In this document: positions 6,227-58,996 of the stretch, in pieces
Position numbering within the stretch: position 1 is the first letter of the stretch
How the letters are laid out: each line of letters begins with the position of its first letter
Assembly: GCA_964566795.1 (NCBI GenBank)
Contig: CAZMIU010000001.1
Location: 214,789-278,788 of the forward strand
Direction of reading: 5' to 3'
Source: an uncultured Candidatus Saccharibacteria bacterium
GTDB taxonomy: Bacteria; Patescibacteriota; Minisyncoccia; Phycocordibacterales; SBAW01
Length of the DNA stretch: 64,000 nucleotides
The notes under the pieces: generated by a model
The model's input: only the letters and a program-made list of their open reading frames with translations
Database searches by the model: none
Told to the model about the DNA's origin: nothing
Program-made: the position numbers and the translations under genes

Positions 6227-6229
6227 ATA

Positions 6230-7168
6230 TTAGCGGTTGCGGGTTGGGACACTGCGGTCGGTGCGAACCTGCGGGCCAGCCTGCACCGGCGGCGGGAAGC
6301 CGTTGGGGCACTCGGTAGTGTAGCGGGGCAGCGGCCAGCCAAAGGTGGCAACTGTTTTGCACTTAACAAACAGGCCTATTTGCTCGCCGAGCCCCGGGGT
6401 TTTGGGCGTGGTGGTTGCCGGCTCGCCGCCCAAGCTGCACAAAAATGTGGGCTGCTCAGAGGCCACCGCCGCCTGGAGCCCCACATTGACAGAAAATGAG
6501 TCGCTCTGGGCCACGTTGCCGAGTGCCGAGCCGTCGCAACTTATCTGTGCGGTGGGCACGTTTACCGAGAGGTTGCCGGCACACCAGGCAATGCCTACAT
6601 ACTTGGTAACACCCGCGGGTATGGGCACGCCAGAGCCCGCATCGGCAAGCGCGTAGGTTGTAGATGCGAGCACTGTGGCAGCACTTTGCACTCCGGTGCC
6701 AAACAGCGGCTGCTCCCCCACCTCAAACACGTTGTCGCCGTCGTCACGCCAGGAAAAGAACTCCATGCCCTCTGCAAGCTCTCCTTTGTCTGCCGGGATG
6801 CTGGCATCGACCGGGTCCTCGGGCTCGTTCTCGCCGTTTTCCAAGCTGATGAGGTTGCTAAACTGCAGGCACATCCATGCGGGTTTGTTTACATGGAGGC
6901 TAATGGTGCTGTTGCCTTGGTCGCCCGGCATGATGTTTGAGAAGTTAAAGAACTTGTCTACACCGGGCACCAGGTTTTTTAGGTCCCACGTGGCCGCGGG
7001 TACAGGTAAGCCGTTGTAGCTGGCTTTGCTGTCGAGCTCTAGGCTAAAGCCGTTTGGCGCGGCAAAGGTTATGCCGGGTGCGGCCTGCGCGAGCAGGGCG
7101 AGGGAGCCCACTAGCACCAGCGTGGTGCCAATGAGTCCTACGTGCTTGAGCGTGCGTGCCAAGTGCAT
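6230..7168 (-). CDS. TasA/camelysin-like paralog without the AFFSD motif (TapA-like accessory candidate)
   Basis: It shares the post-signal region with its neighbours (KFFNFSNIMPGDQGNSTISLHV…AWMC versus KFFDFADLKPGDWGEDTIGLFV…YLCA). Its signal region is AQAAPGITFAAPNGFSLELD. Confidence 0.6.
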   Translation of the reverse strand: MHLARTLKHVGLIGTTLVLVGSLALLAQAAPGITFAAPNGFSLELDSKASYNGLPVPAATWDLKNLVPGVDKFFNFSNIMPGDQGNSTISLHVNKPAWMCLQFSNLISLENGENEPEDPVDASIPADKGELAEGMEFFSWRDDGDNVFEVGEQPLFGTGVQSAATVLASTTYALADAGSGVPIPAGVTKYVGIAWCAGNLSVNVPTAQISCDGSALGNVAQSDSFSVNVGLQAAVASEQPTFLCSLGGEPATTTPKTPGLGEQIGLFVKCKTVATFGWPLPRYTTECPNGFPPPVQAGPQVRTDRSVPTRNR

Positions 7169-7174
7169 TGTGGG

Positions 7175-8527
7175 TTAGGGTGTCGGGATGCCGCAGTGGA
7201 GAGCCTCTATGGCGTCTAAGTCGTATGCGTCTGCATCGTTGGGAAACAAGGCTACGTTGCTTGCGTCGGTAATGCGCACGTATTGCGCCCATGCCAAACC
7301 AGATGAGCTTATGTCTATCTCTGCGTCGCGGGTGTACACACCTGCAACCGGTTGGTATGTGACGCCGTTTTGGCTGACCTCAACGGTTATCTTTTCGTCC
7401 GGATATACGCCGCCGGTGACCTCGTACACTTTCAGATCGGCTCCAACCTCATCAAGCACGACGTTGTCGCCAAAGTTAAGCACTACGCTGCCGTGTGGAG
7501 GCCCGCCCGGCTTAAACCCAAGGCTCAGGAACGAGCTTGCAGGAAACCCTACGTCAGACGCAGCACCACTTGTCTGAGGAGCGCCAGTGGCAGCGGCAAT
7601 AACCGAGCGGTTTGCGAGCACTGCTGCCCCACTCTTTTGCGTACCCTGGCTTAGATCATTGCCGGAATCAGCATACTTTTGATTGCCCGTGCACTCGCCA
7701 AAGGTTGGGGTATCGTCCTCGACACAGACAAAGCTGTCGTTGTTGCGGGACTGCACCGCGCTAAACGCAATGTCTGCGGTAAGCGAGTCGGTTTGGGTGG
7801 TGTTGTTAAGCCCCGAGCCGTCGCATGATATGCCGCCGGAGGAGTTGGCGGGTGACTGCGGGCTGTTGATACCAAGCCCATCCTGCGCAAGCGGAGCGAG
7901 CGTAAGCGTGCCAAAGCACCACGCCTTGCCAATGTAGTGCGCCCATCCTCCCTGTACGGGGCCCGGAGCCTGACCTGGGTTCCAGATGTTGAGCGTGCTG
8001 TCGGCAAGCGTAACTGTGGTAGTGACCCCAAGCGTGAGCGCACCTATGGGGCCCTGCGATATGGGCGCCTCGTCGCTCTCCAACACGTTGTCGCCGTCGT
8101 CTGCCCACCAGACAAAGTTGACCTCGCCCGCAAGCTCGCCCTGCCCTGCGCCGTCGGTTGCGTCGCCGTCCAGACTCTCGGGCTCGTTTATGCCGTTGTC
8201 GTCGTTGCTGGTGAGCGATATGTCGGCACACAGGTAGGAGTCGTTTGTCTCGACAAAGAGCCCAATGGTGTCCTCGCCCCAGTCGCCGGGCTTGAGGTCG
8301 GCAAAGTCAAAAAACTTTTGCATCACCAGGTCGGCAAAGTCCCACGATGTTGCGGGCGAGGGGGCGCCGTTGTAGTAGCTTTCGTTGGCTACGGTTAGGT
8401 TTATCTCGCCTGCGGCAAAGATGTTGGCGACCGATGTCTCGCTGTCGCTAAAAAATGCGCTTGTACCCGCAACCAGCACGGTGCCCGCGAGCAGAACGGA
8501 ACCAAGGCTGAGCAGTATGCTTTTCAT
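7175..8527 (-). CDS. TasA/CalY (camelysin, peptidase M73 family)-like secreted protein with a SipW-cognate signal peptide
   Basis: N-terminus …AGTVLVAGTSAFFSDSETSVANIFAAGEINLTV matches the SipW-cognate class signal consensus (compare CalY GGGTFAFFSDKEVSNNTFAAGTLDL). Paralogous to 8616..10139. Confidence 0.8.
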   Translation of the reverse strand: MKSILLSLGSVLLAGTVLVAGTSAFFSDSETSVANIFAAGEINLTVANESYYNGAPSPATSWDFADLVMQKFFDFADLKPGDWGEDTIGLFVETNDSYLCADISLTSNDDNGINEPESLDGDATDGAGQGELAGEVNFVWWADDGDNVLESDEAPISQGPIGALTLGVTTTVTLADSTLNIWNPGQAPGPVQGGWAHYIGKAWCFGTLTLAPLAQDGLGINSPQSPANSSGGISCDGSGLNNTTQTDSLTADIAFSAVQSRNNDSFVCVEDDTPTFGECTGNQKYADSGNDLSQGTQKSGAAVLANRSVIAAATGAPQTSGAASDVGFPASSFLSLGFKPGGPPHGSVVLNFGDNVVLDEVGADLKVYEVTGGVYPDEKITVEVSQNGVTYQPVAGVYTRDAEIDISSSGLAWAQYVRITDASNVALFPNDADAYDLDAIEALHCGIPTP

Positions 8528-8615
8528 CGCTTGTAAAAATGAGCTTATAAGGCGCCGGGTTCCCCTCCAGCCCGCCCAGCACGAGTTGCCTCATGCTGGG
8601 TACGGCTTGATAGGA

Positions 8616-10139
8616 TTAGAGCTCGAAGTTGTACGTTGTTCCGTCAAACTCGATTGAGCTCACATAGTTTGTCGCACCTGCTGGGCCCGGCTGTCCGGTG
8701 CGGACACCCAGGAATGAACCCGGCGAGAGGAGCTTTGCTGTGGGGAACGCCGCTACGATAGAGTTCCATGAGCGGTACTGGTTTGTATCAGCATCCGGCC
8801 AACTGTTGTCGTCTGCTGTTGCAGCAGTGAGGTCAGGACCAACGGCAAACTTTGACCAAGTCCACATCGCGGTTCCTTGGGCATCAACTGTGGTCCATGT
8901 TGCCGGAGGGAGTGCGGAATTGCCGCCCGAGCCCGGTTGCATGGTCAGACGACCCTCATACGCCGGTCCCGGTAACGGGAAGTCAACGTTGAACTGGATA
9001 AACGGCGTATCGCCATCTGCAGTCGCGTCATATACACGGAACTTGAGCGAGCTGATGGTGTTGAGCAGGTTGCTAAACTGCGCAGTCGCAATGTTGTAGC
9101 GGGGATTCGGATTCGTATCCAGCTTCATCTTTGCGCCCGCCTCGCTGGCGACCACTTCCATGTGGTTCTCACCGCCCTGTCCTGAGAACTGGTCAGGGGT
9201 CATGACGGTATCGTTGGTGTCGTTGTAGAAGAACCATGGGTTCGGTCCTACACCGAGGTCATTCTGATTGACCACCACAACATTATTCCCTGCCGAGCAG
9301 GTGAAGTTCGGATTGTTGCGGGACTGCTCTGCGCGGAAGCTGATGTTTGCGGTCATGGAGTCGGTCTGCGCCTGGTTGCCCATTGATCCGCCGTCACAGG
9401 TAAGTGTGCCGGGTATAGAGGTATCTATGTCGCCTGCGCACCACGCAAGGCCAACATACGTTGTTTGGTCTCCCTCAAACGGACCATTGCCCGTCGTCGA
9501 ATCGGCTAACGCGAGAGTGGTGGTTACACCAAGGATATTGGATGCGGGGCCGGAGTCAAACAACAACGGCTCACTTGCCTGCCAAATGTTGTCTCCGGCG
9601 ACCGCTCCGTTGGTGTTTGCAAGGTCTGCCCAGGCAACAAACTGGATGTTCTGAGCAAGTTCTCCGTCAAAGTCATTGTTGGAGTCCTCTGCAACATCAC
9701 CTGCGGCAAGTTCTGGCTCTACAGACGACTCGTCATCATTTGCGGTGATGTCTACGTCTGCGCACATCCACGCATCGTTGTTTATAACGTGGAGCGAGAT
9801 TGTGTTTTCGCCCTCATCACCCGGCTTGATATCGCTTAGGTTAAAGAACTGGTTTGTGGGCCCAAGGTCACCCTGCACCCAGGTACCATCACAGTCGCCA
9901 TTAAGCAGGTCAGGACGAGTTGTCACCTCTTGGACATTCGGATCATCTACCCAGTGGTTTGTTGCATCACACACGAGACCTGCATAGTGTGCCTGAGAAT
10001 CAACCTGCAAGTCTATAGACCCTGCAGTAAACGTGTTGGCAGACGAGGTCTCAACATCGCTAAAGAACGCGCCCGTTGCACTTGCAACTACTGCTCCAAT
10101 GAATACGAGCGTGCCCGCGCTCATAAGTATTCTTTTCAT
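8616..10139 (-). CDS. TasA/CalY-like secreted protein with a SipW-cognate signal peptide; first gene of the operon
   Basis: …VVASATGAFFSDVETSSANTFTAGSIDLQV. The following FNLSDIKPGDEGENTISLHV…AWMCADVD motifs are shared with the other two paralogs. Large C-terminal domain. Confidence 0.8.
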   Translation of the reverse strand: MKRILMSAGTLVFIGAVVASATGAFFSDVETSSANTFTAGSIDLQVDSQAHYAGLVCDATNHWVDDPNVQEVTTRPDLLNGDCDGTWVQGDLGPTNQFFNLSDIKPGDEGENTISLHVINNDAWMCADVDITANDDESSVEPELAAGDVAEDSNNDFDGELAQNIQFVAWADLANTNGAVAGDNIWQASEPLLFDSGPASNILGVTTTLALADSTTGNGPFEGDQTTYVGLAWCAGDIDTSIPGTLTCDGGSMGNQAQTDSMTANISFRAEQSRNNPNFTCSAGNNVVVVNQNDLGVGPNPWFFYNDTNDTVMTPDQFSGQGGENHMEVVASEAGAKMKLDTNPNPRYNIATAQFSNLLNTISSLKFRVYDATADGDTPFIQFNVDFPLPGPAYEGRLTMQPGSGGNSALPPATWTTVDAQGTAMWTWSKFAVGPDLTAATADDNSWPDADTNQYRSWNSIVAAFPTAKLLSPGSFLGVRTGQPGPAGATNYVSSIEFDGTTYNFEL

Positions 10140-11272: not shown

Positions 11273-12443
11273 ACAGTATGGTGCCCCACGCTGCGATGCG
11301 CGCCAGGACTCCGCCCTGCCGCATTAGTGTGCGCGACAAGACAGAAAATCCGATGAACGCGTACGAGCCCAGGAGCACTAGTGTCATGATACTGCTAAAA
11401 ATTAACTCGGGCACAAGACTTATCCTCAGGGCCCAGTCCCACCTGTCTTTTTCCGGGTACCAGCGCATGAGCCACAACTGGAGCACATACCACGACACAA
11501 ACTGCAGTATGGAGAGCGTAATAAGGACCCTAAGCACCACAGACGGCACGCCCCCGCCGTCTACAATGAGGAGCGTTATAAGGAGCGCCAGCGTGGCGAT
11601 AAACACCACGTGGCCCAAGACATCCTGGAGCACGGCTGTCTTGTCGCGGGCGCCAAGCACCACCTGCACCCCGCCCAGGCTCCACCTGGTACGCTGCCGC
11701 CAAAACTGCCCCAGAGTCTCGGGGACCTCTGTCCAGGCGGGTGCATCCAGCGCCGCGCGCACGCTCCAGCCCAGGGACTTTAGCCGGGTGGTCATCTCGT
11801 AGTCCTCAATAAGGTGGCTCTCGGCAAAGGGGCCTGCCTGCCTAAGCGCCCGGGCGCGCAGCGCCGTAAGCATCCCGTGCATTACCAGAGGCCCGCGCAA
11901 AAAGCCCTGGTCGCCCAGGCGTATGGCATTAAAGCCCACATACTCCAGGCCCTGCAGGCGCGTAAGCAGGTTTTTGTTCTTATTGAGCACGCCGCAGCGC
12001 GAGCACACCGCCCCCAGCGTAGGGTCGCTAAAGAGCGCCTCTGTCATGCGCTTTACGGTCGTGGGCCCCACCACCACGTCGTCATCAAGCGTAATGATGG
12101 CGGCGGGCTTGTAGGGGCCTTTGCGCTCAAACAGGTACGCAAGCGCCAGGTTAAGCGCCCCGGCCTTGAGCCTGTTGTGCGGCGTGCGCAACACCACAAC
12201 GCGCGGGCCCATAGCCTTAAGGCGCGCCAGCACCTCCATAGCGGGCGCGTAATCCTCTGGCGTGGAGTCGTCTACCACCAGCACCTCAAGCTTGGGGTTG
12301 TACCGTACAAGGTCCTCTACCAAACAAAGCGCCGTCGCCCCCGGTTTGTAGGTAGGGACGACGGCGCTTACGTTGGGCTCAAAAACCTTGTGCGTACTAA
12401 GAGAGCGTGTTGGGACTAGAAAGTTTTTGAGCGATACCCTCAT
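11226..12443 (-). CDS. Family 2 glycosyltransferase (membrane-associated processive GT2-like)
   Basis: VVPTYKP, VVDDSTPED, TLDDD (the DxD), and QRTRWSLGG (the QxxRW motif). Hydrophobic C-terminal helices. Confidence 0.8.
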   Translation of the reverse strand: MRVSLKNFLVPTRSLSTHKVFEPNVSAVVPTYKPGATALCLVEDLVRYNPKLEVLVVDDSTPEDYAPAMEVLARLKAMGPRVVVLRTPHNRLKAGALNLALAYLFERKGPYKPAAIITLDDDVVVGPTTVKRMTEALFSDPTLGAVCSRCGVLNKNKNLLTRLQGLEYVGFNAIRLGDQGFLRGPLVMHGMLTALRARALRQAGPFAESHLIEDYEMTTRLKSLGWSVRAALDAPAWTEVPETLGQFWRQRTRWSLGGVQVVLGARDKTAVLQDVLGHVVFIATLALLITLLIVDGGGVPSVVLRVLITLSILQFVSWYVLQLWLMRWYPEKDRWDWALRISLVPELIFSSIMTLVLLGSYAFIGFSVLSRTLMRQGGVLARIAAWGTILFAKLGYSGRWGTRTN

Positions 12444-13915
12444 TACCGGCCAAAGAGCCAGTTGATAAAGCGGGTAAGCCAGCCCTCGCCTGCCCCGGTC
12501 GAGGTGGCGTTAGCCGCAGTAGCCGTCTGTACCTTGGGGTCTATAACGCTACTATTCTCGTCTACCTTAACGTTGGGAGCGACCACGCTGCCCACAGCGG
12601 GCGCTGCTCCTGCCGCAGCAGGTGCCACTGCGCCAGCGCCTGTGGTGCCCATGCTCGTTATACCCTGCGCGCGCAGCTGGGGCTGCACCTGGCGCACATA
12701 GGCTATCTCCTCAATCTGGCTTGCCGAGAGCGGGAAGTCTTTCTGGAACTTGCAGTAGATAGTGTTTATCGTCTTTTGCGTTGTGTAGTACACGTAGCCG
12801 GTAGCGCCCCTGGCCCCCCACGGGGTGAGGATGTCTGCGGCGTACTTGTTCTGGAAGGCGTTAACCGCAGCAAGCGTTGCCGGGCCGTAGGTGCCTGTAA
12901 CCGGCAGGGTGTTGCCCTCAAAGGTGTTAAGGAACACCTGGAGCTTGGCCACCTCGCCTGCGTCGTTCTGCGCGCCATACTTGATATAGCCGGTGAGGTA
13001 CATGGGGCACTCATCCTGAGCACCCAACACCTCGCCCTGGCTGCCGCTGGAGCGCGAGCCGCCACTGCGGCGGTGCGAGCTGCCGCCCGATGAGTCGCCA
13101 TCGTCGTCATTGCTGCCGCCACCGCCGCCCTGACCCTCGTCGGTCTCATTGTCGTCCTGTGCGTCTGAGCAGCCCAGGTCTGCCGGGAAGTCGACTAGCC
13201 CGTCGCCGTCGTTGTCCTGGCTGTCGGAGCACTGCGCAGAGCCACCGCCGCCTGTAGAGTCGGTTTCGTCGGTGTCGTTGGCATCGGTGCAGCCCGGATC
13301 TGCCGGGAAGTCTGTCTTACCGTCGCCATCATTGTCCTGGCCGTCTGAGCAGGCAGGGTTGTTGCCGCCGCCCTGGTCAGTCTCGTCGGTGTCAGAGGGG
13401 CTCGAGCACCCCGGATCTGCCATGTCGACTTTGCCGTCGCCGTCGTTGTCCTGGCCGTCTGCACACTGTGCCGGCAGGGTAGGATCGTCGCCTTCGTTGT
13501 CATCGGTCGGCGTAGAACAGCCTGGGTCTGCGTCGGCATCACCCGGTACACCCCAATCTACTTTGCCGTCATTATCGTTATCGATGCCATCGTTGCACTG
13601 TGGAGGTACGGTGCAGGGCAGGTCGGACTGGCTTTGATTGCCCGGCAAATCCGGACACCAGTCTATTACCTGGCCGCCATCATCCTCGCAGTCCTCCTCA
13701 AACATCGGAAAGATCCCCGTGGTGCCATCACCCTCATCTCCCACCTGGTCAACCAAGCAGAGGATCTCTGTGGCAAGTGTTGCGTGCACGAGACGCTGGT
13801 TTCCCCAAACAAACGCGGTGAGCGCAAGCGCCACCGCCATCATGAAGGCGATAGACGTGCGCAATTCCCGAGTCAACGTCATAAGTAATATGATTACGCT
13901 ATTAAATAAAAGCAC
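12443..13915 (-). CDS. Secreted protein with 4-5 Cys-flanked Asp-rich calcium-binding repeats (CxDGQDNDGDGKxD…DPGC), a Gly/Ser linker and a C-terminal peptidoglycan-binding-like domain
   Basis: Repeats CADGQDNDGDGKVDMADPGC, CSDGQDNDGDGKTDFPADPGC, CSDSQDNDGDGLVDFPADLGC. C-terminal LQVFLNTFEGNTLPVTGTYGPATLAAVNAFQNKYAADILTPWG is paralogous to the C-terminus of the 928-aa protein. Confidence 0.75.
   Translation of the reverse strand: MLLFNSVIILLMTLTRELRTSIAFMMAVALALTAFVWGNQRLVHATLATEILCLVDQVGDEGDGTTGIFPMFEEDCEDDGGQVIDWCPDLPGNQSQSDLPCTVPPQCNDGIDNDNDGKVDWGVPGDADADPGCSTPTDDNEGDDPTLPAQCADGQDNDGDGKVDMADPGCSSPSDTDETDQGGGNNPACSDGQDNDGDGKTDFPADPGCTDANDTDETDSTGGGGSAQCSDSQDNDGDGLVDFPADLGCSDAQDDNETDEGQGGGGGSNDDDGDSSGGSSHRRSGGSRSSGSQGEVLGAQDECPMYLTGYIKYGAQNDAGEVAKLQVFLNTFEGNTLPVTGTYGPATLAAVNAFQNKYAADILTPWGARGATGYVYYTTQKTINTIYCKFQKDFPLSASQIEEIAYVRQVQPQLRAQGITSMGTTGAGAVAPAAAGAAPAVGSVVAPNVKVDENSSVIDPKVQTATAANATSTGAGEGWLTRFINWLFGR
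13150..13560. repeat. Tandem ~96-bp coding repeats (four copies) that encode the DNDGDGK calcium-binding modules
   Basis: Recurrent DNA blocks …ctgccgggaagtc..ccgtcgccgtcgttgtcctggc.gtc.gagca… are visible directly. Confidence 0.6.
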
Positions 13916-14022: not shown

Positions 14023-14823
14023 ATGCGCACACAGCACTCGCCCCTGCCCTACGTTGGCACTGCGGCACTGGTGGCCTGTCTTTTATGTCCTTTAGCCGCC
14101 GGGGCGGCGCAGTTTGCCCCCAGCGCGCTCTTTTTGTCTAAAAACGCCGTGGTTGAGGGCGATACGGTGCTTATACACGCCGTGGTCCAAAACGACGCTG
14201 CGGGCAAGTTCCCAGGCAATGTGGTGTTTAGAGACGGCGACACGCAGGTGGGCTCGGTGCCGGTAACCCTGCTTGCAAGCGAGGTGCGCGCCGTGTCGGT
14301 ATCCTGGACCCCGGCCTCCCCCGGCAGCCACAAGGTGGTCGCGGCACTGCTAGACCAGGGCGGCACCGCGGTGCAGAGCGAGGAGCAGACCTTTACTATT
14401 GCGGCCAAGCCCAAACCCAAGCCGGCTGTGGCCACCTCCTCTAATGCCGCCGCAGCGATAGAGTCCTCTAAAGACATCCAGGACAAGATTGGTGGGCTCT
14501 CCCCCGCCGCCGGCGGCGCTCTGGCCCCTGTGTTTAAGCTCGTAGATGGAGCGCGCTCGTCTGTGGCAAGCGTGTTGGACGACCAACTGGCCAAGACCAA
14601 GCCCAAACTGGCCCCCATACCGGGCGTGGTTGCCGGCACCAGCAGCTCCATACAAGCCCCCGAGCAGGGCTCATGGTTTGGCTCGATATTTACTACCGTC
14701 TACTACTATGTGTTGACCGTACTGCGCTGGCTTGTGGGCTCGGCGGCGGTGTTCTACCCGGTACTTGCCTTTGCCTTTCTCTACATCCTGTACAGGATGT
14801 TTAGACGCTTTAGGAGGGATTAG
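14023..14823 (+). CDS. Membrane-anchored extracellular protein with a CARDB/Ig-like domain
   Basis: Signal peptide. VEGDTVLIHAVVQNDAAGKFPGNVVFRDGDTQVGSVPVTLLASEVRAVSVSWTPASPGSHKV has a CARDB-like beta-sandwich pattern. C-terminal TM (VLTVLRWLVGSAAVFYPVLAFAFLYILY) and basic tail. Confidence 0.55.
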   Translation: MRTQHSPLPYVGTAALVACLLCPLAAGAAQFAPSALFLSKNAVVEGDTVLIHAVVQNDAAGKFPGNVVFRDGDTQVGSVPVTLLASEVRAVSVSWTPASPGSHKVVAALLDQGGTAVQSEEQTFTIAAKPKPKPAVATSSNAAAAIESSKDIQDKIGGLSPAAGGALAPVFKLVDGARSSVASVLDDQLAKTKPKLAPIPGVVAGTSSSIQAPEQGSWFGSIFTTVYYYVLTVLRWLVGSAAVFYPVLAFAFLYILYRMFRRFRRD

Positions 14824-42124: not shown

Positions 42125-42829
42125 CTATTTGACGATAGTAAAGCCTGATCCGGTTGTATAAGCCATTACTTGCCCCGGTTGGTACGTATTGCCGTCCCAG
42201 TCATGGCGCACTATATTGGTGCCCTCATCAGGACTCTCGCGTGTAGGTATATACAACGCCAGATACCCTCCAACAATGACGTTTGCGGTAGCAATCTCCG
42301 CGCCTGCAAGAGTAGTGAACACTTTTACCCAAGTACCATTCCTCTTTTGGTAGATATCAAATGTGCATCCTCCTGTCCCACAGAAACTCATCATAGTCTC
42401 GTACACCAGAGCCTCAGGGGCACCGTCTTGGTTGAGATCTACCATGGCAACATCTATTGCCGTCTCGTTTAATTTTGGAAATATCTCCTTATTAAGCGCG
42501 AAGTCGCTTGCGTATAGCTTATAAATCTCACCTTCAGCACCTTGAGACGCCTGGTCAACCCGTTTAAACGCCACACGCTGCCCGAGCAAAGCACGATACA
42601 GGGTGTCATATGCTTTATCGTAGTCTTGCAGGGTTTGACCCTGTGTCCCCTGCCTGGGCTGACTTGAAACACCCACGGTTGAGCGGCCGTTAAACGTTGA
42701 GTTTGGGTCGGTGGTGTTTGGGTTTGTCGTTGGTGTGGCTTTTGGACTTAAGACAAACCATGCAATACCAACCACTACCACGACAACCGCGATAGCTATG
42801 GCAAGTATTTTTGTAGCAAGAGGATTCAT
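42125..42829 (-). CDS. Hypothetical membrane-anchored extracytoplasmic protein
   Basis: N-terminal TM (ILAIAIAVVVVVVGIAWFVL). Thr/Asn-rich linker. Globular C-terminal domain with three Cys. Confidence 0.5.
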   Translation of the reverse strand: MNPLATKILAIAIAVVVVVVGIAWFVLSPKATPTTNPNTTDPNSTFNGRSTVGVSSQPRQGTQGQTLQDYDKAYDTLYRALLGQRVAFKRVDQASQGAEGEIYKLYASDFALNKEIFPKLNETAIDVAMVDLNQDGAPEALVYETMMSFCGTGGCTFDIYQKRNGTWVKVFTTLAGAEIATANVIVGGYLALYIPTRESPDEGTNIVRHDWDGNTYQPGQVMAYTTGSGFTIVK

Positions 42830-42847: not shown

Positions 42848-44611
42848 CTAGCGACAGGCGGTATTAACATAACTTACAGCGTTTGGGGGGACTCCTCCTG
42901 CTTTTATCACGTTGCCTGCACCCTGGAAGTAAGCTGCCGCAGTTATCTGGCACTCGCCGTACTGTTGGCGCAGCGAGGCAAGTGCAGGCAGAGTGCGCAT
43001 TTGCTCTATATATTGCACACCGAGCCTGGTCCCCAACTGCGTGTCGTTTTCGAGAGTCTGTATAACCGGCGCACACTGCGGCCTGATGCTGTTGCGGCTC
43101 GCCAAGCAAGCACCGCAACTGTCTGATATCGAGGAATCCATGCCACATGCGGTTGTAGCCAGCACCTGCATGCAGCCCGCGGCGCCTGTGTTGCTTGTTG
43201 TGCAGTTGCGACCTCCGCTCGACTCATTCATTGCAATTTTTGTCGCTAAAGCACAGTTGCCCCCATTTATCTGGACACAGGCCGCCTGTAGTTCTGCCGC
43301 CATGTTTGGATTGCTAATCCTGCCCTGAGTACGAGCCTCTACCCAGTCGTCGGGATTGTTGGGGTTCTCGCAGTAACCCCCTTCTTCGCTCGTATACGTG
43401 TACCCCGACGGGCATACTGACCCTCCGGATGAGCCCCCGGCACCGTAACTTGTGCCAGAGCCTACTGTGCTGTTGCCAACCGATACACTCACGCCGCAAT
43501 TAGAGTAGGTACATTCGCCAGTCGTGTTGTCGGTACAACCGCCAATTGCCGAGCTGTATGACGATCCGTTGGGACACATTTGGCCTGTTACCGGCACCCC
43601 GGCGCCGGGGTTTACACCGCAGTTTGAGAACGTACATTCATTTGTCGTGCTGTCTACACATCCGCCTAAAGACGACTGGAATATTGACCCGCTCGGACAT
43701 AACGGATTGTTGTATACAGGGTCGCTTGGTGGAGCCACGTTGGTATACCCCGAGAGGGTCGGGAGCGAGGTGTTGAGATAGTCCTTAATGCTCATGTTGT
43801 ACAGGCGCGCACCGCGTACTGCCCTGCAGTCGAGCGTGCGCCAGTCCCACGTGCCAAGCTGGCCCCCCTTCATGAGCATGTTCATGACCGTGTTTACCAG
43901 AGCCCACACGCTCACAATTATCAAAAACCCAATCAGCACAGTCTTAAATATCTTTTTGGCCGCATTGATATGCTCTGCCACGCCACGCGCGGCAAACAGC
44001 CTGATGCCCGCCCAGGCAAACAGGAGTGCCGCAGCCGGGACGCTGAGCCCCAACAAAAAGTTGGCGATGTTTTGTATAAGCTGTGCCAGCGAGCACAGGT
44101 CGCAGTTGGCTACCGTATTTTTGCCGCGGCACTCGGCGGGCACAATGCCGCCCACAAACCCGTTACCGGTTGGGGCTGTAAGCCCTCCGGTTGGCGCAGC
44201 AGGCACTACAACATTGGGCTGTGGGGCCGGCGTTGTGGGCACGCCGGTGCCGGTGCCGGTGGTCCCAGTGCCTGTAGCCCCGCCACCCCCCGAGCCACCG
44301 CCGGCACTTACAACAACTGCCGTGCGGCACACAACAGAGCCCCCGGGGCCCGTAAAGCTCGCGGCGTAGGTGGTGTTTTTACCCGGCACCACGTAGGCAA
44401 ACCCGGCCGATGGGATAGGCCCCACCTCGTTGAGGTAGCCGGCAGATGCGTTCTTACTTGTCCAGTCGAGACGCACACGGGTGTTGGGCGCCACGGTTGC
44501 GGCGCTTGCAAACAAGGTGCAGGTTGGCGCGGGCGCTGTCTGGCTTTGCGCTGATGCAAAAGTAGGCGCAACAAGCGCCAAAACAAGCAGGAGCCTCGCG
44601 AAGGCCTTCAT
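42848..44611 (-). CDS. 587-aa multidomain secreted protein: Ig-like N-terminal domain, Gly/Thr linker, VirB2/TrbC-pilin-like two-helix membrane hairpin, three Cys-rich repeats, C-terminal SLT-type lytic transglycosylase domain
   Basis: Signal peptide. FAWAGIRLFAARG…IGFLIIVSVWALVNTV is paralogous to the 55.3-57.2 kb small proteins. Repeats CPSGSIFQSSLGGCVDSTTNECTFSNCGV and CPNGSSYSSAIGGCTDNTTGECTYSNCGV. The SLT core IAMNESSGG…GAAGCMQV…AAAYFQGAGNV can be compared with Slt70 ARQESAWN…GASGLMQI…AAYNAGPG. Confidence 0.7.
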   Translation of the reverse strand: MKAFARLLLVLALVAPTFASAQSQTAPAPTCTLFASAATVAPNTRVRLDWTSKNASAGYLNEVGPIPSAGFAYVVPGKNTTYAASFTGPGGSVVCRTAVVVSAGGGSGGGGATGTGTTGTGTGVPTTPAPQPNVVVPAAPTGGLTAPTGNGFVGGIVPAECRGKNTVANCDLCSLAQLIQNIANFLLGLSVPAAALLFAWAGIRLFAARGVAEHINAAKKIFKTVLIGFLIIVSVWALVNTVMNMLMKGGQLGTWDWRTLDCRAVRGARLYNMSIKDYLNTSLPTLSGYTNVAPPSDPVYNNPLCPSGSIFQSSLGGCVDSTTNECTFSNCGVNPGAGVPVTGQMCPNGSSYSSAIGGCTDNTTGECTYSNCGVSVSVGNSTVGSGTSYGAGGSSGGSVCPSGYTYTSEEGGYCENPNNPDDWVEARTQGRISNPNMAAELQAACVQINGGNCALATKIAMNESSGGRNCTTSNTGAAGCMQVLATTACGMDSSISDSCGACLASRNSIRPQCAPVIQTLENDTQLGTRLGVQYIEQMRTLPALASLRQQYGECQITAAAYFQGAGNVIKAGGVPPNAVSYVNTACR

Positions 44612-54559: not shown

Positions 54560-55279
54560 ATGATACGATATATGCATATGAATAAAACCTTTATTACTAC
54601 TCTCCTGGTATTGGCGGCTATTTCTATGCCCTACTTTGCCTCTGCCTCGACAGTATCTGACACCTACGACACCACCTGGATAGATACAGGCTATTACGAT
54701 ACCTTTGAGCCCATCTACGACACGGTAGCTTCCGGGGGCTCGCAGTCTTATCGCTCCGGCTTCTCTGTCCCTGCCGGCCTCTCGGTTCGCTCAGGCTTCT
54801 CTGTCCCCTCTGGCCGCTCGGTATTCTCCGGCCGCTCCACACCTTCTGGCCGCTCAGTACGCTCCGGCTACTCGGTACCCTCGGGCATCCCGTATAACCC
54901 AGCCTACTCTGCAGTATCCGGCTACTCGACCCGCTCGGGTTACTCGGTGCAGTCCGGATACTCCACCCCCTCTGGCACAGCAGCCCAGTCTGGCTACTCT
55001 GCCCAGTCTGGCACAGCGGCGCAGTCGGGCTATGCTGCTCAGTCTGGCAAGTCTGTACAGTCCGGATACTCTGGCCCCTCGGGCAAGTCTGCAAACTCCG
55101 GCTACTCTGCACAGTCTGGCTACAGCATCGCCTCGGGCTACTCGGCACCGTCCGGCTACAGCATCGCCTCAGGCTACTCCGCCCAGTCTGGCTACTCGGT
55201 GCCCTCCGGTTACTCTGCCCCGTCCGGGTTCTCGGCACCAGGCACACAGATCGGCTACCTAAGCCCCATATACAAGTAA
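54560..55279 (+). CDS. Secreted protein made almost entirely of ~35 hexapeptide SG(Y/F)S-x-x repeats
   Basis: Signal peptide MNKTFITTLLVLAAISMPYFASA. Then …SGYSAQSGYSIASGYSAPSGYSIASGYSAQSGYSVPSGYSAPSGFS…. The underlying 18-nt DNA periodicity is visible at 54760-55250. Confidence 0.7.
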   Translation: MIRYMHMNKTFITTLLVLAAISMPYFASASTVSDTYDTTWIDTGYYDTFEPIYDTVASGGSQSYRSGFSVPAGLSVRSGFSVPSGRSVFSGRSTPSGRSVRSGYSVPSGIPYNPAYSAVSGYSTRSGYSVQSGYSTPSGTAAQSGYSAQSGTAAQSGYAAQSGKSVQSGYSGPSGKSANSGYSAQSGYSIASGYSAPSGYSIASGYSAQSGYSVPSGYSAPSGFSAPGTQIGYLSPIYK

Positions 55280-55328
55280 TACATGCAAACAAAAACCGCC
55301 GCCCCGTTTGAGGGCGGCGGTTTTTGTA

Positions 55329-55592
55329 TTACCAGCACGGCAGCGTGCCGCCGACCACGTTTGAGATAATTTTAATAACGGCGATAGCAGAGACCATGAT
55401 GATCATACCCAAAAGCCCGTAGCCCATGTGCCTCTTGCCGTCCTCGCGCTTGCTGCTCTCCTGGCTGAGGCCCCACATAAACTCCACAAGCCCAAAAATA
55501 AACACAAGCAGGCCTACAGCAAACAAGAGTGCCAGCGCGGGGTTTACAATCGCGCCCACTATCTTTCCAACTATTGAGCAGGTCGCTGTCAT
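55329..55592 (-). CDS. Small two-helix membrane protein, VirB2/TrbC-pilin-like paralog 5
   Basis: LLVFIFGLVEFMWG-loop(SQESSKREDGKR)-LLGMIIMVSAIAVIKII. Shares its architecture with the four upstream ORFs. Confidence 0.55.
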   Translation of the reverse strand: MTATCSIVGKIVGAIVNPALALLFAVGLLVFIFGLVEFMWGLSQESSKREDGKRHMGYGLLGMIIMVSAIAVIKIISNVVGGTLPCW

Positions 55593-55594
55593 GG

Positions 55595-55921
55595 TCAGTA
55601 GATAGCGTTTGCAGAGCTATTGCCCGTGCCCGGATATATAATCTGCGGCGCCTTGCCGGTCGCGTTGGCATTAATGCCGAGTGCCGTCTGCATGAGCGCG
55701 ATAATCCCCCACACCGACACCATCACAAAGAGTATAAGCAGGCCCCACTTCATCAGCGTCTTGGCCTTGTCTATCTCGGGGCCGGCGCCGCTGCCCCACA
55801 TGTACTTAACCAAGCCCCAGAGGAATACCGCCAGGCCAAGCGTAACAAGCACCGGCACGAGCATCCCGACAACCTTTGCCAGGGCGGATATGAGGCTCAC
55901 GAGTGGAGAGAGGTTAAGCAT
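55595..55921 (-). CDS. VirB2/TrbC-pilin-like paralog 4
   Basis: LAVFLWGLVKYMWGSGAGPEIDKAKTLMKWGLLILFVMVSVWGIIALMQTALGI is ~60% identical to paralog 3. Confidence 0.6.
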   Translation of the reverse strand: MLNLSPLVSLISALAKVVGMLVPVLVTLGLAVFLWGLVKYMWGSGAGPEIDKAKTLMKWGLLILFVMVSVWGIIALMQTALGINANATGKAPQIIYPGTGNSSANAIY

Positions 55922-55956
55922 ACGGCAAAAGGGCCGGCGTCAGCCGGCCCTTTAGG

Positions 55957-56313
55957 CTACATCGGGTAGAGTACTTGCGGCGAGGTTGCACCTGCGTTGG
56001 GGTTAATGCCGAGCGCATCTTGTGCCAGGCGCACAATGCCCCAGACAGACACCATCACAAACAGCGTTACAAGGCCCCAGATCATCAAGTCGCGGTTGGA
56101 CTTGGTGCCATCTGCGCCGCCTGCCTTCAGGAGATAGCGCACCAGACCAAAGAAGAACACCACCAGTGCCAGCGTAATAAGGACCGGGACAAGCGCACCC
56201 ACAAGGCGGGCGATGGCGCCAATGAGGTTAGCCAAAGGCTGGAGGCTCTGGGCTGAGGCTGCAAACGGCATAGCCATCAAAAGGGCTGCAGAAGCTACGG
56301 ATATCTTTTTCAT
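55957..56313 (-). CDS. VirB2/TrbC-pilin-like paralog 3, with a cleavable signal peptide
   Basis: MKKISVASAALLMAMPFAASAQS signal, then LVVFFFGLVRYLLKAGGADGTKSNRDLMIWGLVTLFVMVSVWGIVRLAQDALGI. Confidence 0.6.
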   Translation of the reverse strand: MKKISVASAALLMAMPFAASAQSLQPLANLIGAIARLVGALVPVLITLALVVFFFGLVRYLLKAGGADGTKSNRDLMIWGLVTLFVMVSVWGIVRLAQDALGINPNAGATSPQVLYPM

Positions 56314-56449
56314 GTGTAATTATTATTGTAAACCTACGCGCACCACCTAATGAATATGCTGTTAATAGTAGCAGGCTGCGCGTAGCGACAGCTTGCGCGT
56401 GTGGATATCTCCGGCGTTTCCGGCCAAGTCCGTACCAGAGCGTCGGACT

Positions 56450-56686
56450 CTAGGCCACAAAGATGTTCTGCACCACCTGCAGTATCCCAAACACCGACAC
56501 AATGATAAACAGCACAAGCAGGCTCCACCCCAAAAACTCCTTCTGGGCCTGTTTGCGCGCATCCTGCGCATAAAACAGGTAGCGCACGCCGCCCCAGATA
56601 AACACGGCCAAGGCAACCGAGCCTAAAAGCGCCACAAGCAGGTTAATAATCGAGATAATCTGCGACACGAGTGTTGAGAGTGTCAT
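56450..56686 (-). CDS. VirB2/TrbC-pilin-like paralog 2 (78 aa, no signal peptide)
   Basis: LAVFIWGGVRYLFYAQDARKQAQKEFLGWSLLVLFIIVSVFGILQVV. Confidence 0.55.
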   Translation of the reverse strand: MTLSTLVSQIISIINLLVALLGSVALAVFIWGGVRYLFYAQDARKQAQKEFLGWSLLVLFIIVSVFGILQVVQNIFVA

Positions 56687-56689
56687 GTA

Positions 56690-57157
56690 TTAGGTGCGGC
56701 CGCAGAACTGTATCGTGCCCGAGGTGTCGAGTGTCTGTATGGTTGCGGCAATGATGGTGGCCAGGGTCCACGCGCCTAAAAACACGGCAATACCCACAAT
56801 GACAAAGTAGAAGTTGCGTTTGGCCTCCTCAAGCTTGGTCGAGTTGCCGCGCGCCAGAATAAACTTAAAGCCCGACCACACAAAGAAGAACACGGCCACG
56901 GGCAGCCCTATGGCCAGTACAACGTTAAGGAGGCTGCGCACCAGGTCGCAGAAGTTTTTAACCCCCAGAGGGTCGCAGAGCGTAAAGGTGCCGTCGCTGC
57001 CTGGCCCGCACCCGCCACCGGTCGTATACGCCGAGCCACCACCCGTGGTAAAGGTAGAGCCGCCGCCGGTTGTAAAGGTTCCCTGTGCCATAGTCAGTTG
57101 AGGCACCAGAACTGAGGCAAACAGTGCGAGCGTTGCGATGTGTTTTATGAACTTCAT
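56690..57157 (-). CDS. VirB2/TrbC-pilin-like paralog 1, with a signal peptide and a TFTTGGGS-repeat N-terminal extension
   Basis: MKFIKHIATLALFASVLVPQLTMAQG signal. GTFTTGGGSTFTTGGGSAYTTGGG. Cys pair. Then VFFFVWSGFKFILARGNSTKLEEAKRNFYFVIVGIAVFLGAWTLATII. Confidence 0.6.
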   Translation of the reverse strand: MKFIKHIATLALFASVLVPQLTMAQGTFTTGGGSTFTTGGGSAYTTGGGCGPGSDGTFTLCDPLGVKNFCDLVRSLLNVVLAIGLPVAVFFFVWSGFKFILARGNSTKLEEAKRNFYFVIVGIAVFLGAWTLATIIAATIQTLDTSGTIQFCGRT

Positions 57158-58455
57158 TATTGGTTTGGCAAAAGCTGGCGCATAGCCGACGCCGCGTCAA
57201 AGACAGCCTGCTCGGAGGTGCTGCGGCCGCTTATCACCGATTCTATCATCTCTTTAAACAGGCTATTGGTCGTCTGCGTGTTTGGGTCGGCCCACGAGCG
57301 CGACATGAGCGCCGACTGTACAAACACCGCCGCCGCGGCCGAGGACGAGGTGTCGGTGCGCACATCGCGGCGCGCCGGCGGCAGTCCCAGCTGCTGCGCC
57401 ACCGCCGCCGCCGAGGTGGGCGAGGTAAGCTTGATGGCGGCGGCCAGCGCGCCATTTGGGTTTTGCGAGCCGCGCGCAATAGCGAGGCCCACCATGGTGC
57501 CCGAGGTAATCTTGGCTGATGCGCCCTCAAGCTGCGGCAGGGTCGCCACACCAAAGCGCAAGTTGGGGTTTCTCTCACCTATCGAGCGGTATTCGCTGGC
57601 AAAGCCAAAGTAGATAGCGAGGTCGCCCGCAGTAAACGCGTTGTACGAGCTGGGCAGCGAGCGGTTCCACGAGTAGGTGGTCTTGCTGGGATTGGCAAAG
57701 TCGGTATAAAAGCGCAGGGCCTCAGACGCGGGAGACACGTTTGAGTTGTTGGGGCGGCTCCCCAGTATGGGCACGAGGTTGCCCGAGGGAGCGCGGTTGG
57801 TGATAAAGTCGCCCGACTGCATGATAAGCGCCGAGAGTATCGCCTTGGCGTTTACAACATTGTCCCAGGTACCCATCGCCACCGCCGACTTGCGGATATT
57901 GCCGCCCGCATCAAGCCCGGTCATCTTGGGTGCCAGAGTTATAAGCTCGCTCCAGTACTGCGGAGGCTGCCCCTGCCCCACCCCGGTAAAGGTGTCGCGG
58001 TTCCAGTACATGACCAGGGGGTCAATGATAAACGGCAGGGACAATATGCCCTGCGGCGTCAAAAACAGTTGGCCCTCATCTATATAGGAGGTTATAAACG
58101 TGCTTTGCGACACGGTGCTGTACGGGATAGGCGTAACCTTGTCTGCCAAGAGGCCAATGTCCTGTTGCGAGAGGAAGATAAGGTCGGGCCCGGTACCCGC
58201 CGCGATGGCGTTGATAAGCTCAGACTCGTAGGTTGCAGGCTTTTTGGCAATGTAGATTACATCCTGGAGCGCCTTGTCCTTTTGGGTCAACGCCGAGAGT
58301 ATCGCGTCCATCTGTGTTTGGTCGGCAGTACCCCACACCACAACCCTGCCGAGCGTGTCTTTGTTGCCAAAGCCGCCAAACAGCGCAAAGATACCCACGC
58401 CGGCAATAACCAGTATGGCAAAAATGCCCATGACAATAGTTTGGAAGGCCGACAT
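57157..58455 (-). CDS. ABC transporter extracellular solute-binding protein (family 1, sugar-type), membrane-anchored
   Basis: N-terminal TM anchor. SBP_bac_1-like fold motifs (VVWGTADQT…, GPDLIFLSQQDIG, …NPNLRFGVATLPQ). Confidence 0.7.
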   Translation of the reverse strand: MSAFQTIVMGIFAILVIAGVGIFALFGGFGNKDTLGRVVVWGTADQTQMDAILSALTQKDKALQDVIYIAKKPATYESELINAIAAGTGPDLIFLSQQDIGLLADKVTPIPYSTVSQSTFITSYIDEGQLFLTPQGILSLPFIIDPLVMYWNRDTFTGVGQGQPPQYWSELITLAPKMTGLDAGGNIRKSAVAMGTWDNVVNAKAILSALIMQSGDFITNRAPSGNLVPILGSRPNNSNVSPASEALRFYTDFANPSKTTYSWNRSLPSSYNAFTAGDLAIYFGFASEYRSIGERNPNLRFGVATLPQLEGASAKITSGTMVGLAIARGSQNPNGALAAAIKLTSPTSAAAVAQQLGLPPARRDVRTDTSSSAAAAVFVQSALMSRSWADPNTQTTNSLFKEMIESVISGRSTSEQAVFDAASAMRQLLPNQ

Positions 58456-58456
58456 A

Positions 58457-58996
58457 CTACTTCTTTCTTAGTATAAGGCCCCAATGATACCCGCCCACGG
58501 AGATATCCTCTGCATGTGCAAACCCGGCCCGCTCAAATATCGCGCGTGCCTCCTCTTTTGAAATCACATGGTCATCGTGCGGCCCTAAGCCCCCATGGCT
58601 CGCCGACCAGTCAATTAAGAGCAGCCTCCCCGCGCGGCGCAGCACGCGGTATGCCTCGCGCGCCACGGTGTCTTTATCGTGCATCGAAAACAGCGTGTTT
58701 GCGAGAATGCAGAAGTCTATCGTGGCGTCCGGCAGGTGCGTGCCGCGGAGCTTCTCGGGGGTGCCGCGCACCACCTCTATGGTGTGTATCCCCTCGCTTG
58801 TGGCCAAGTTTTTAAGCCGCACGAGCATCTCTTGGCTCGGGTCGATAGCCCATACCTGTGCATCGGGCCCGGCTGCGCGCGCCGCTGCGCGTGTAAAAAA
58901 GCCCGAGCCCGCAGCCAAGTCGGCCACACGGGAGCCTTGGCTTATGTGCGCCCTAGCAATGGCAGCCTGCGGGTTAAGAAACGATGTCTCGCTCAC
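58457..58996 (-). CDS. Class I SAM-dependent methyltransferase
   Basis: Motif I VADLAAGSGFF. Rossmann-like order. Confidence 0.7.
   Translation of the reverse strand: MSETSFLNPQAAIARAHISQGSRVADLAAGSGFFTRAAARAAGPDAQVWAIDPSQEMLVRLKNLATSEGIHTIEVVRGTPEKLRGTHLPDATIDFCILANTLFSMHDKDTVAREAYRVLRRAGRLLLIDWSASHGGLGPHDDHVISKEEARAIFERAGFAHAEDISVGGYHWGLILRKK

Follow-up and report, generated by a model that had tools for sequence, protein, structure and literature searches.

A conserved tandem array of probable VirB2-like pilin genes beside a solute-binding protein gene on a Paceibacteria-type chromosome

Introduction

When several small membrane proteins of one architecture are encoded side by side on a patescibacterial chromosome, are they the pilins of a type IV secretion system (T4SS), and is the system to which they belong a new one? 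The question is raised by a 64,000-nucleotide stretch of DNA, hereafter the window, from an uncultured Candidatus Saccharibacteria bacterium (assembly GCA_964566795.1, contig CAZMIU010000001.1, positions 214,789 to 278,788 of the forward strand). An initial annotation, made from the sequence alone, had described five consecutive genes near one end of the window, here named W1 to W5, as a tandem array of VirB2/TrbC-pilin-like paralogues and as a candidate for an undescribed system. The analysis presented here indicates, with a probability of about 0.7, that W1–W5 are VirB2-like pilins of a T4SS on a Paceibacteria-type chromosome and that they build a filament or conduit on the cell surface where the host is contacted; the system itself is not new.

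T4SS genes are widespread in Patescibacteria. A survey of 3,035 genomes of the phylum, performed with profiles that include PF18895 and PF04956 (Quinonero-Coronel et al. 2025, PMC12102498), reports VirB4 in 2,417 of the 3,035 assemblies and a monoderm-type machinery of VirB4, TrsD, VirB3 and VirB6, resembling the mating-pair formation (MPF) class MPF-FATA, in about 80% of them. VirB2-like pilins were recorded in 1,948 VirB4-positive assemblies, near virB4 in 1,135 of these, and 441 VirB2 arrays of 2–11 genes were counted in 383 assemblies, with a mean identity of 25% and a maximum of 54%. Table S3 of the same survey lists runs of six to eight PF18895 genes in Woesebacteria and Nomurabacteria, as well as PF18895 genes directly beside virB4 in many Patescibacteria. 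Southlakia epibionticum requires both its T4SS and its series of pilins in order to grow as an epibiont on the host (Wang et al. 2023, PMC10633639); a nomenclature review of 2025 (PMC12857230) assigns six VirB2-like pilins to this organism and regards a pilus as possible in a monoderm. The function of the patescibacterial T4SS has nevertheless been called 'completely unknown' (perspective PMC11665869).

Results and Discussion

Five paralogous genes of a T4SS pilin family

The five genes were found in the list of open reading frames (ORFs) exactly where they had been described, on the minus strand between positions 55329 and 57157: W5 at 56690–57157 (155 amino acids, aa), W4 at 56450–56686 (78 aa), W3 at 55957–56313 (118 aa), W2 at 55595–55921 (108 aa) and W1 at 55329–55592 (87 aa). 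Their products can be aligned over a common core of approximately 75 residues, with identities of 18–55% between paralogues, the highest being that of W2 and W3 (55%); the local identities of all other pairs are 22–38%. A sixth copy of the module had been placed inside an SLT-fusion protein at 42.8–44.6 kb, and it is indeed present there, at residues 174–242 of a 587-aa protein encoded at 42848–44611 on the minus strand. When a profile built from the six copies was run against all 895 six-frame ORFs of the window, exactly six matches were obtained, with E values from 1e-30 to 1e-41 and a next best of about 1; W2 alone scored 133.9 bits. Since the profile recovers precisely these six, the repetition far exceeds what chance would produce, and no seventh copy is present in the window.

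All six copies match PF18895 (T4SS_pilin, 'Type IV secretion system pilin'), and in W1–W5 the match extends over essentially the whole 71-position model. Two of them exceed the Pfam gathering cut-off of 26.6 bits, namely W5 (40.3 bits) and the fusion protein (37.6 bits); the remaining scores are 24.0 bits for W4 (E 4e-5), 21.6 for W1, 19.4 for W3 and 14.0 for W2 (E 0.055). The cut-off of PF04956, the TrbC/VirB2 family (27.9 bits), is missed by W5 (25.6 bits, E 1.4e-5) and by W3 (13.1 bits). W5 is the most TrbC/VirB2-like copy and, judged by the curated threshold, the proteins are relatives of PF04956 rather than members. Profiles of the W3 and W5 types align with each other with an hhalign probability of 92.4% (E 5e-7). 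All five proteins also match NF045849 of NCBIfam ('Mbov_0395 family pilin-like conjugal transfer protein'), known from integrative and conjugative elements of Mycoplasma, albeit weakly, at 11–22 bits against a cut-off of 40. In a collection of 5.8 billion proteins, most of the close homologues carry a stored PF18895 annotation, and dozens of W5-type homologues carry PF04956. The family call of the initial annotation is thus upheld by PF18895 matches in all six copies and by the score of W5 just under the PF04956 cut-off.

The pilin family is very large, as an exhaustive HMMER search returned 42,778 representative clusters at E≤1e-3, 5,729 of which lie at E≤1e-10. Many of its top representatives, encoded outside the window, consist of two to eight concatenated hairpins per polypeptide (P0193, 358 aa; P0194, 820 aa; P0198, 555 aa). 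These proteins begin with a signal-like N-terminus, and in P0193 and P0198 linker regions lie between the hairpins. Pilin arrays appear, then, to exist as domain arrays besides gene arrays.

Could W1–W5 belong instead to the holins, the bacteriocin-immunity proteins or some other characterised family of two-helix membrane proteins? Besides small size and two-helix topology, what speaks for such an identity is a marginal match of W3 to Pfam Ion_trans (25.4 bits, cut-off 25), a match that is best regarded as a hydrophobic-helix artefact because the model has 241 positions, of which the match spans 81 residues, and none of the paralogues shows it. No family of the kind was detected in Pfam at E≤1 or in NCBIfam, PHROGs gave no match for any of the five, and the genes are surrounded by chromosomal housekeeping genes, not by a prophage or a bacteriocin locus. 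This identity, which the initial annotation had raised as a possible refutation, is effectively refuted by the Pfam, NCBIfam and PHROGs searches, and we consider it barely tenable.

Hairpin architecture, leaders and cysteines

The architecture of the proteins is that expected of T4SS pilins, in which two hydrophobic helices are joined by a short basic loop. Each of W1–W5 has two hydrophobic stretches, with Kyte–Doolittle peaks of 2.3–2.8, and an interhelix loop of about 12–20 residues that contains 3–5 Lys/Arg. The AlphaFold2 model of W3, computed with 56 homologues, shows a signal helix followed by a hairpin of helices 24–61 and 66–101, with a block-mean predicted local distance difference test (pLDDT) score of approximately 78–93. 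The motif L.LF.MVSVWGI and the tail ALGIN, reported earlier as common to the array, are found in W2 and W3, and partly in W4, and not in all five; the TFTTGGGS repeat and the cysteines described for W5 are real.

Putative Sec-type leaders ending in A-x-A are present in W3, W5 and the fusion protein only; that of W3 is MKKISVASAALLMAMPFAASA, followed by QS. Two of the three leaders formerly counted within the array therefore stand, those of W3 and W5, whereas the third sits on the fusion protein and W2 has none here. In W1, W2 and W4 there is no room for a leader, given that their stop-to-stop ORFs reach just 0–8 codons upstream. The W2 orthologue in assembly GCA_964650645.1 does carry a signal peptide, MRKALMLLALAGLPLAASAQS. 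As the same leaderless 108-aa form is also found in other assemblies, the absence in W2 is not a sequencing error, and since W2 lacks what its orthologue has, the signal peptide of a W2-type pilin would evidently be dispensable.

Cysteines flank the hairpin in some of the copies. In W5, Cys50, Cys61 and Cys70 precede helix 1 and Cys152 follows helix 2; among 33 W5-type homologues, C70 and C152 are invariant and the N-side Cys61 is not. W1 has Cys5 and Cys86 near its opposite ends, both of which are kept in an orthologue with 73% identity, and in the fusion family C161, C170, C173 and C262 are invariant. Hairpin-flanking cysteines are absent from W2, W3 and W4. The presence of Cys on both outer tails of W5-type proteins, W1 and the fusion protein suggests that a disulfide might staple the two tails together, in imitation of the cyclised VirB2 and TrbC pilins. 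The predicted pairs are C70–C152 in W5, C5–C86 in W1 and C170/C173–C262 in the fusion protein.

A pilin hairpin fused to a lytic transglycosylase

The protein that carries the sixth copy is composed, in this order, of a signal peptide, an immunoglobulin (Ig)-like domain (pLDDT ~95), a disordered Gly/Thr/Pro linker, the pilin hairpin (43886–44092), Cys-rich beta repeats and a C-terminal lytic transglycosylase domain (residues ~435–587). The last of these has the lytic-transglycosylase fold and the catalytic motifs (ES, GCMQ and AAYFQG) of SLT (PF01464)/VirB1-like enzymes, and the whole protein can be read from its sequence as an enzyme of the VirB1 type for which a VirB2-type hairpin serves as the anchor. 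Because the Ig-like N-terminal domain and the peptidoglycan-cleaving C-terminal domain must both be extracellular, both ends of the hairpin should lie outside the membrane, which supports the same ends-outside topology for the free pilins.

The fusion gene lies 11 kb from the array and adjoins clpB in every relative, even where the identity of its product falls to 28%. It differs from VirB1, from TrsG/TraG of pIP501 and from CD419/CTn1-Orf17 by the possession of a pilin hairpin, an Ig-like domain and Cys-rich repeats, and by its location next to clpB instead of virB4. The combination of a pilin with a transglycosylase is not new, however, since domain databases already record it: homologues of the fusion protein carry stored annotations of PF18895 plus PF01464 or PF18896.

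A protein of 190–234 aa without family assignment is always encoded after the fusion gene, at 42125–42829 on the minus strand of the window and, in two related loci, at 11624–12199 (L010) and 11616–12182 (L013). A conserved partnership with the fusion protein is possible.

Operon organization and regulatory elements

The pilin genes occupy the distal part of an apparent operon with the order methyltransferase, binding protein, W5, W4, W3, W2, W1. Its first gene (58457–58996, minus strand) encodes a class I S-adenosylmethionine-dependent methyltransferase with matches to Pfam Methyltransf_11/25/31; the second (57157–58455, minus strand) encodes a membrane-anchored, MalE-like extracellular solute-binding protein, with 63.9 bits to PF13416 and a weak full-length match to MalE. 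The stop of the methyltransferase gene abuts the start of the binding-protein gene. The position of the methyltransferase is kept in the relative loci L001–L006, and the gene is absent from L012; its membership of the pilin system is uncertain. The stop codon of the binding-protein gene overlaps the ATG of W5 (TAATG), and the two genes are probably translationally coupled. Spacing is equally tight within the array, where W4 starts 3 nt past the stop of W5, and W1 starts 2 nt past that of W2.

Upstream of W3 there is a gap of 136 bp (56314–56449, minus strand), which contains two conserved blocks, ATATCCACAC and CTGCTACTATTAA. Both are invariant upstream of the W3 orthologue in four aligned lineages, including Nomurabacteria (gaps of L003, L004 and L006). 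A scan for the sigma-70 consensus detected no minus-strand promoter in the array or in the W3 gap, and the regional counts were not above those of shuffled sequences; it is thus the conserved blocks alone that point to the gap as what may be an internal promoter or operator. The window additionally has a 24-nt insertion just before the W3 ATG.

Two RNA hairpins were predicted on the minus strand. The first, GC-rich and followed by UUUUG (55928–55953; −24.3 kcal/mol, z −3.3), lies between W3 and W2, in a 35-nt spacer (55922–55956) situated where the W2 orthologue encodes its signal peptide, and it may attenuate or partly terminate transcription after W3. The second is an intrinsic terminator hairpin with A/U runs on either side (55290–55326; −29.7 kcal/mol, z −4.8), placed by a terminator scan on the plus strand at 55304–55320. 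This terminator is bidirectional, closing the pilin operon and serving also the convergent plus-strand gene of an SGYS-repeat protein.

The elements on either side of W3 bear on the question of which copy is the main subunit. W3 is the best conserved pilin of the array, and it is preceded by the conserved intergenic element and followed by a hairpin; for these reasons, it is likely to be the major subunit.

Conservation of the array in related genomes

The nearest named relatives belong to 'Candidatus Paceibacterota', Nomurabacteria and Yonathbacteria. A comparison of synteny, one of the checks proposed with the initial annotation, bore the array out: in every relative fetched, a binding-protein gene followed by four to six pilin genes is located downstream of gyrA. 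The block was found in GCA_964650645.1 and three other assemblies, in Nomurabacteria GCA_020854065.1, in a JGI contig and in Yonathbacteria RIFOXYD1_FULL_52_36, where there are five pilin copies and the binding protein is 34% identical (E 8e-81). The Yonathbacteria locus was also the only one retrieved when W1 alone was used as the query against genome contigs. In the more distant GCA_900218215.1, six copies are present and the downstream neighbourhood is different. In each of the six lineages examined, the array is immediately preceded by an orthologue of the binding-protein gene (for instance, at 6932–8275 in L001 of Yonathbacteria, 7165–8436 in L003, 7904–9202 in L006 and 7645–8931 in L012), and in none of the six was a permease or ATPase gene found beside it. 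This linkage is not mentioned in the part of the patescibacterial survey covered here (PMC12102498).

The initial annotation had offered two explanations for the five diverged copies, major and minor subunits or antigenic diversification. In comparison with GCA_964650645.1, the positional orthologues share identities of 62% (W5), 76% (W4), 78% (W3), 62% (W2) and 73% (W1). The ratio of non-synonymous to synonymous substitution rates (dN/dS) ranges from 0.13 to 0.34 across the five pilins, with W3 at 0.13, and is 0.19 for the binding protein; these ratios are approximate because synonymous sites are near saturation (dS ~0.9–1.6). Given that orthologues are 62–78% identical while paralogues share 18–55%, and given the low dN/dS, the paralogues are old, individually conserved and functional, and under purifying selection. 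Their separate conservation favours distinct structural roles over rapid antigenic diversification. The first explanation therefore fits the positional orthology, and the second receives no support from it.

An alternative along the latter lines is that the copies are surface subunits exchanged for one another to vary host range or antigenicity, an idea put forward for the VirB2 paralogues of Bartonella and Anaplasma, with no fixed division into major and minor subunits. The extracellular N- and C-terminal tails are indeed the most divergent parts among the paralogues, the internal conserved element and the hairpin could permit differential expression, and versatility towards different host strains has been proposed for patescibacterial arrays (PMC12102498). 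However, the orthologues have remained position-specific despite the high dS, neither gene conversion nor diversifying selection is apparent, and three independent sequencing runs gave the same nucleotide sequence for the array, all of which leaves this alternative doubtful. The runs in question are Logan contigs (L007–L009, from SRR14271365, DRR198497 and SRR14271372), in which the coding sequences of the binding protein and pilins that are present are identical to those of the window, all six genes having been compared in two of the three. On account of this identity, the same strain seems to recur in several public datasets.

Evidence for and against a T4SS pilus

Taken at the strength given in the Introduction, the assignment of W1–W5 to the VirB2-like pilins suggests the following mechanism. 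Each pilin would span the cytoplasmic membrane twice, its two termini lying on the outer side and its basic loop facing the cytoplasm; W3 and W5 would be inserted with cleavage of their signal peptides, and W1, W2 and W4 without a leader. The resulting membrane pool would then be extracted and polymerised by a monoderm-type VirB4/TrsD/VirB3/VirB6 machine encoded outside the window, while the pilin–transglycosylase fusion would open the cell wall for the filament. At the contact with the host cell, this would yield a filament or conduit on the surface, with W3 as its major subunit and W1, W2, W4 and W5 in minor or specialised positions. The Yonathbacteria relative with the syntenic five-gene array is recorded as VirB4-positive in Table S1 of PMC12102498.

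A number of observations weigh against this picture, the first of which concern linkage. The linkage to virB4 and other MPF genes that would be expected of T4SS pilins was not found at the array: no VirB4, VirD4, VirB6/TrsD or VirB3/PrgI was detected among the scanned ORFs of the window, which extends 55 kb on one side of the array and 7 kb on the other, and no such gene occurs within 10 kb of the array or the fusion gene in seven related loci. A search for VirB4 beside a distant pilin homologue (P0106) and three homologues of the fusion protein (P0136, P0156 and P0166) likewise yielded no T4SS ATPase, and the same housekeeping synteny. As regards the proteins themselves, W1–W4 taken singly fall below the PF18895 cut-off (14–24 bits), even though PF18895 still ranks at or near the top of the families matched across the full domain. 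When PDB was searched by sequence and by profile, no significant match to the solved pilin structures (TraA, VirB2 and TrbC) was obtained, only chance matches to G protein-coupled receptors and cytochrome oxidase, and a Foldseek search of the W3 model against PDB retrieved nothing at E≤0.001 beyond generic helical hairpins, although a two-helix hairpin is too simple a shape for Foldseek to discriminate, and the search is for this reason uninformative. Moreover, the tight and conserved coupling to a solute-binding protein is no known T4SS feature. Finally, no pilus made of such proteins has been seen in any patescibacterium, and the T4SSs of monoderms and Gram-positive bacteria are generally without pili (PMC12102498; PMC10633639).

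The general lack of pili in Gram-positive T4SSs also favours another possibility, namely that these members of the T4SS-pilin family stay in the cytoplasmic membrane as stoichiometric parts of a translocation channel or its assembly platform and form no extracellular pilus. Such a role has been ascribed to small proteins with two helices in the conjugation systems of monoderms, and all five proteins here show the weak resemblance to NF045849. In addition, one copy is tethered to a 587-aa enzyme, and many members of the family are concatenated hairpins; both arrangements are ill-suited to classical pilus packing, and the concatenated forms in particular are hard to reconcile with a lattice of single subunits. 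On the other hand, five to six diverged and individually conserved paralogues exceed the obvious needs of a channel, the W5 repeats and the W2 and W3 tails look like extracellular decorations and suggest surface exposure, and pilus formation has been deemed plausible for patescibacterial arrays (PMC12857230). A purely membrane-embedded role is accordingly credible, if unlikely.

The conserved pairing with the binding protein raises a further alternative, in which the locus would be a nutrient-capture or adhesion module that operates independently of any T4SS together with its co-transcribed binding protein, the resemblance to pilins being merely ancestral. The apparent translational coupling agrees with it, as do the adjacency of the two elements in every lineage examined, including the one with an otherwise different neighbourhood, and the lack of T4SS genes near the array in any of these lineages. 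Nevertheless, there is no permease or ATPase partner nearby either, and such a module has no precedent. In many other members of the phylum, virB4 has a gene of this family as its immediate neighbour (Table S3 of PMC12102498), and one family member is fused here to a lytic transglycosylase, the enzyme class that T4SSs employ as VirB1. We therefore regard an independent module as very improbable.

Under the preferred assignment to T4SS pilins, the pairing could have a different origin. It is conceivable, albeit speculative, that the pilin genes left a virB4 cluster and that the binding protein became a dedicated partner of the filament, either as a receptor for host glycans at its tip or base or as a device for nutrient capture.

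Comparison with known systems

The locus most closely resembles the VirB2 arrays published for Patescibacteria (PMC12102498), with which it shares the Pfam family, the tandem organisation of diverged copies, the phylum and the chromosomal location. Many of the pilin genes in that survey are likewise not close to virB4. The locus differs from the published arrays in that the window has no virB4 and in belonging to a conserved block of gyrA, solute-binding protein and pilins. The source genome is not among the part of the survey tables covered. The array of Southlakia epibionticum ML1, the only experimentally tested case, likewise consists of predicted pilins that are divergent in sequence and similar in structure, in an epibiotic patescibacterium; however, that organism belongs to the class Saccharimonadia and its array is located inside a T4SS cluster (SEML1_0006–0019), and the likeness drawn here is one of description, not of sequence.

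Among more distant systems, VirB2 of Agrobacterium, TrbC of RP4, TraA of F and the PF04956 family in general are also small pro-pilins; they fold as a hairpin of two helices, with the basic loop in the cytoplasm and the two termini on the outer side. In contrast, the host here is a monoderm without an outer-membrane core complex, three of the five copies are leaderless, no virB genes are adjacent and pilus formation is unproven. The tandem VirB2 paralogues of Bartonella and Anaplasma phagocytophilum (as cited in PMC12102498) are comparable in that a host-associated bacterium has several diverged copies; those copies are thought to serve antigenic variation, whereas the paralogues described here are old, positionally conserved and under purifying selection.

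The suggestion that the array represents an undescribed system did not hold. A PF18895 model exists, 441 arrays have been published (PMC12102498), and the array of S. epibionticum is known to be essential (PMC10633639). As the family, the array organisation and the combination of pilin and transglycosylase are all on record, the system is not new.

Other genes of the window

The rest of the window is ordinary chromosome, with genes for GyrA, a Nudix protein, a methyltransferase, IF-2, RbfA, ClpB, MiaA, ParB, RelA/SpoT, topoisomerase I, DprA, SerRS, DnaX and others. Next to the array, an SGYS-repeat secreted protein, an SPFH protein, a polytopic membrane protein and a solute-binding protein are encoded as previously described. 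The genes of the SPFH, polytopic and SGYS-repeat proteins lie on the strand opposite to the array. Since the Yonathbacteria locus does not share them, we do not count them in the system. The SGYS-repeat gene (54560–55279, plus strand) is built of tandem repeats of about 18 nt and of 36 nt (SGYS-x-x-SG), and its product has weak matches to collagen-like adhesins (Lcl and SclB) and to phage tail-fibre families. In the related loci L002–L005, a small gene encoding 177–183 aa occupies the corresponding place, matched by position only; in L001 of Yonathbacteria, no counterpart was identified.

The window is also rich in cell-envelope genes. A signal peptidase I of the SipW/archaeal type (5201–6226, minus strand; TIGR02228, 102 bits) is encoded beside two large proteins with SipW-dependent signal peptides (TIGR04088), at 7175–8527 and 8616–10139 on the same strand, together with one ORF without family assignment (6230–7168, minus strand). 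Judging from these domains, the region 5201–10139 looks like a TasA/camelysin-like fibre locus and would be a second putative surface-filament system in the window. Large predicted surface proteins with DUF11, PG_binding_1 and bacterial Ig-like domains are encoded at 1004–3790 (minus strand), 12443–13915 (minus strand) and 14023–14823 (plus strand).

Conclusions

The locus is a further instance of the pilin arrays already described in Patescibacteria, and it does not open the question of what the T4SS does in this phylum. What it adds is modest. Within one lineage of Paceibacteria, the array has no linkage to virB4, a solute-binding protein is invariably part of its apparent operon, and the ancient, separately conserved paralogues favour distinct structural roles over antigenic variation. 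If the binding protein were indeed a partner of the filament, the T4SS pilus of Patescibacteria would be tied to the acquisition of nutrients from the host, and the concatenated-hairpin proteins of the family would point to a filament or channel architecture unlike that of classical conjugative pili. Should a member of this lineage be brought into culture, the linkage to the binding protein and the conservation of the individual paralogues could guide gene targeting.

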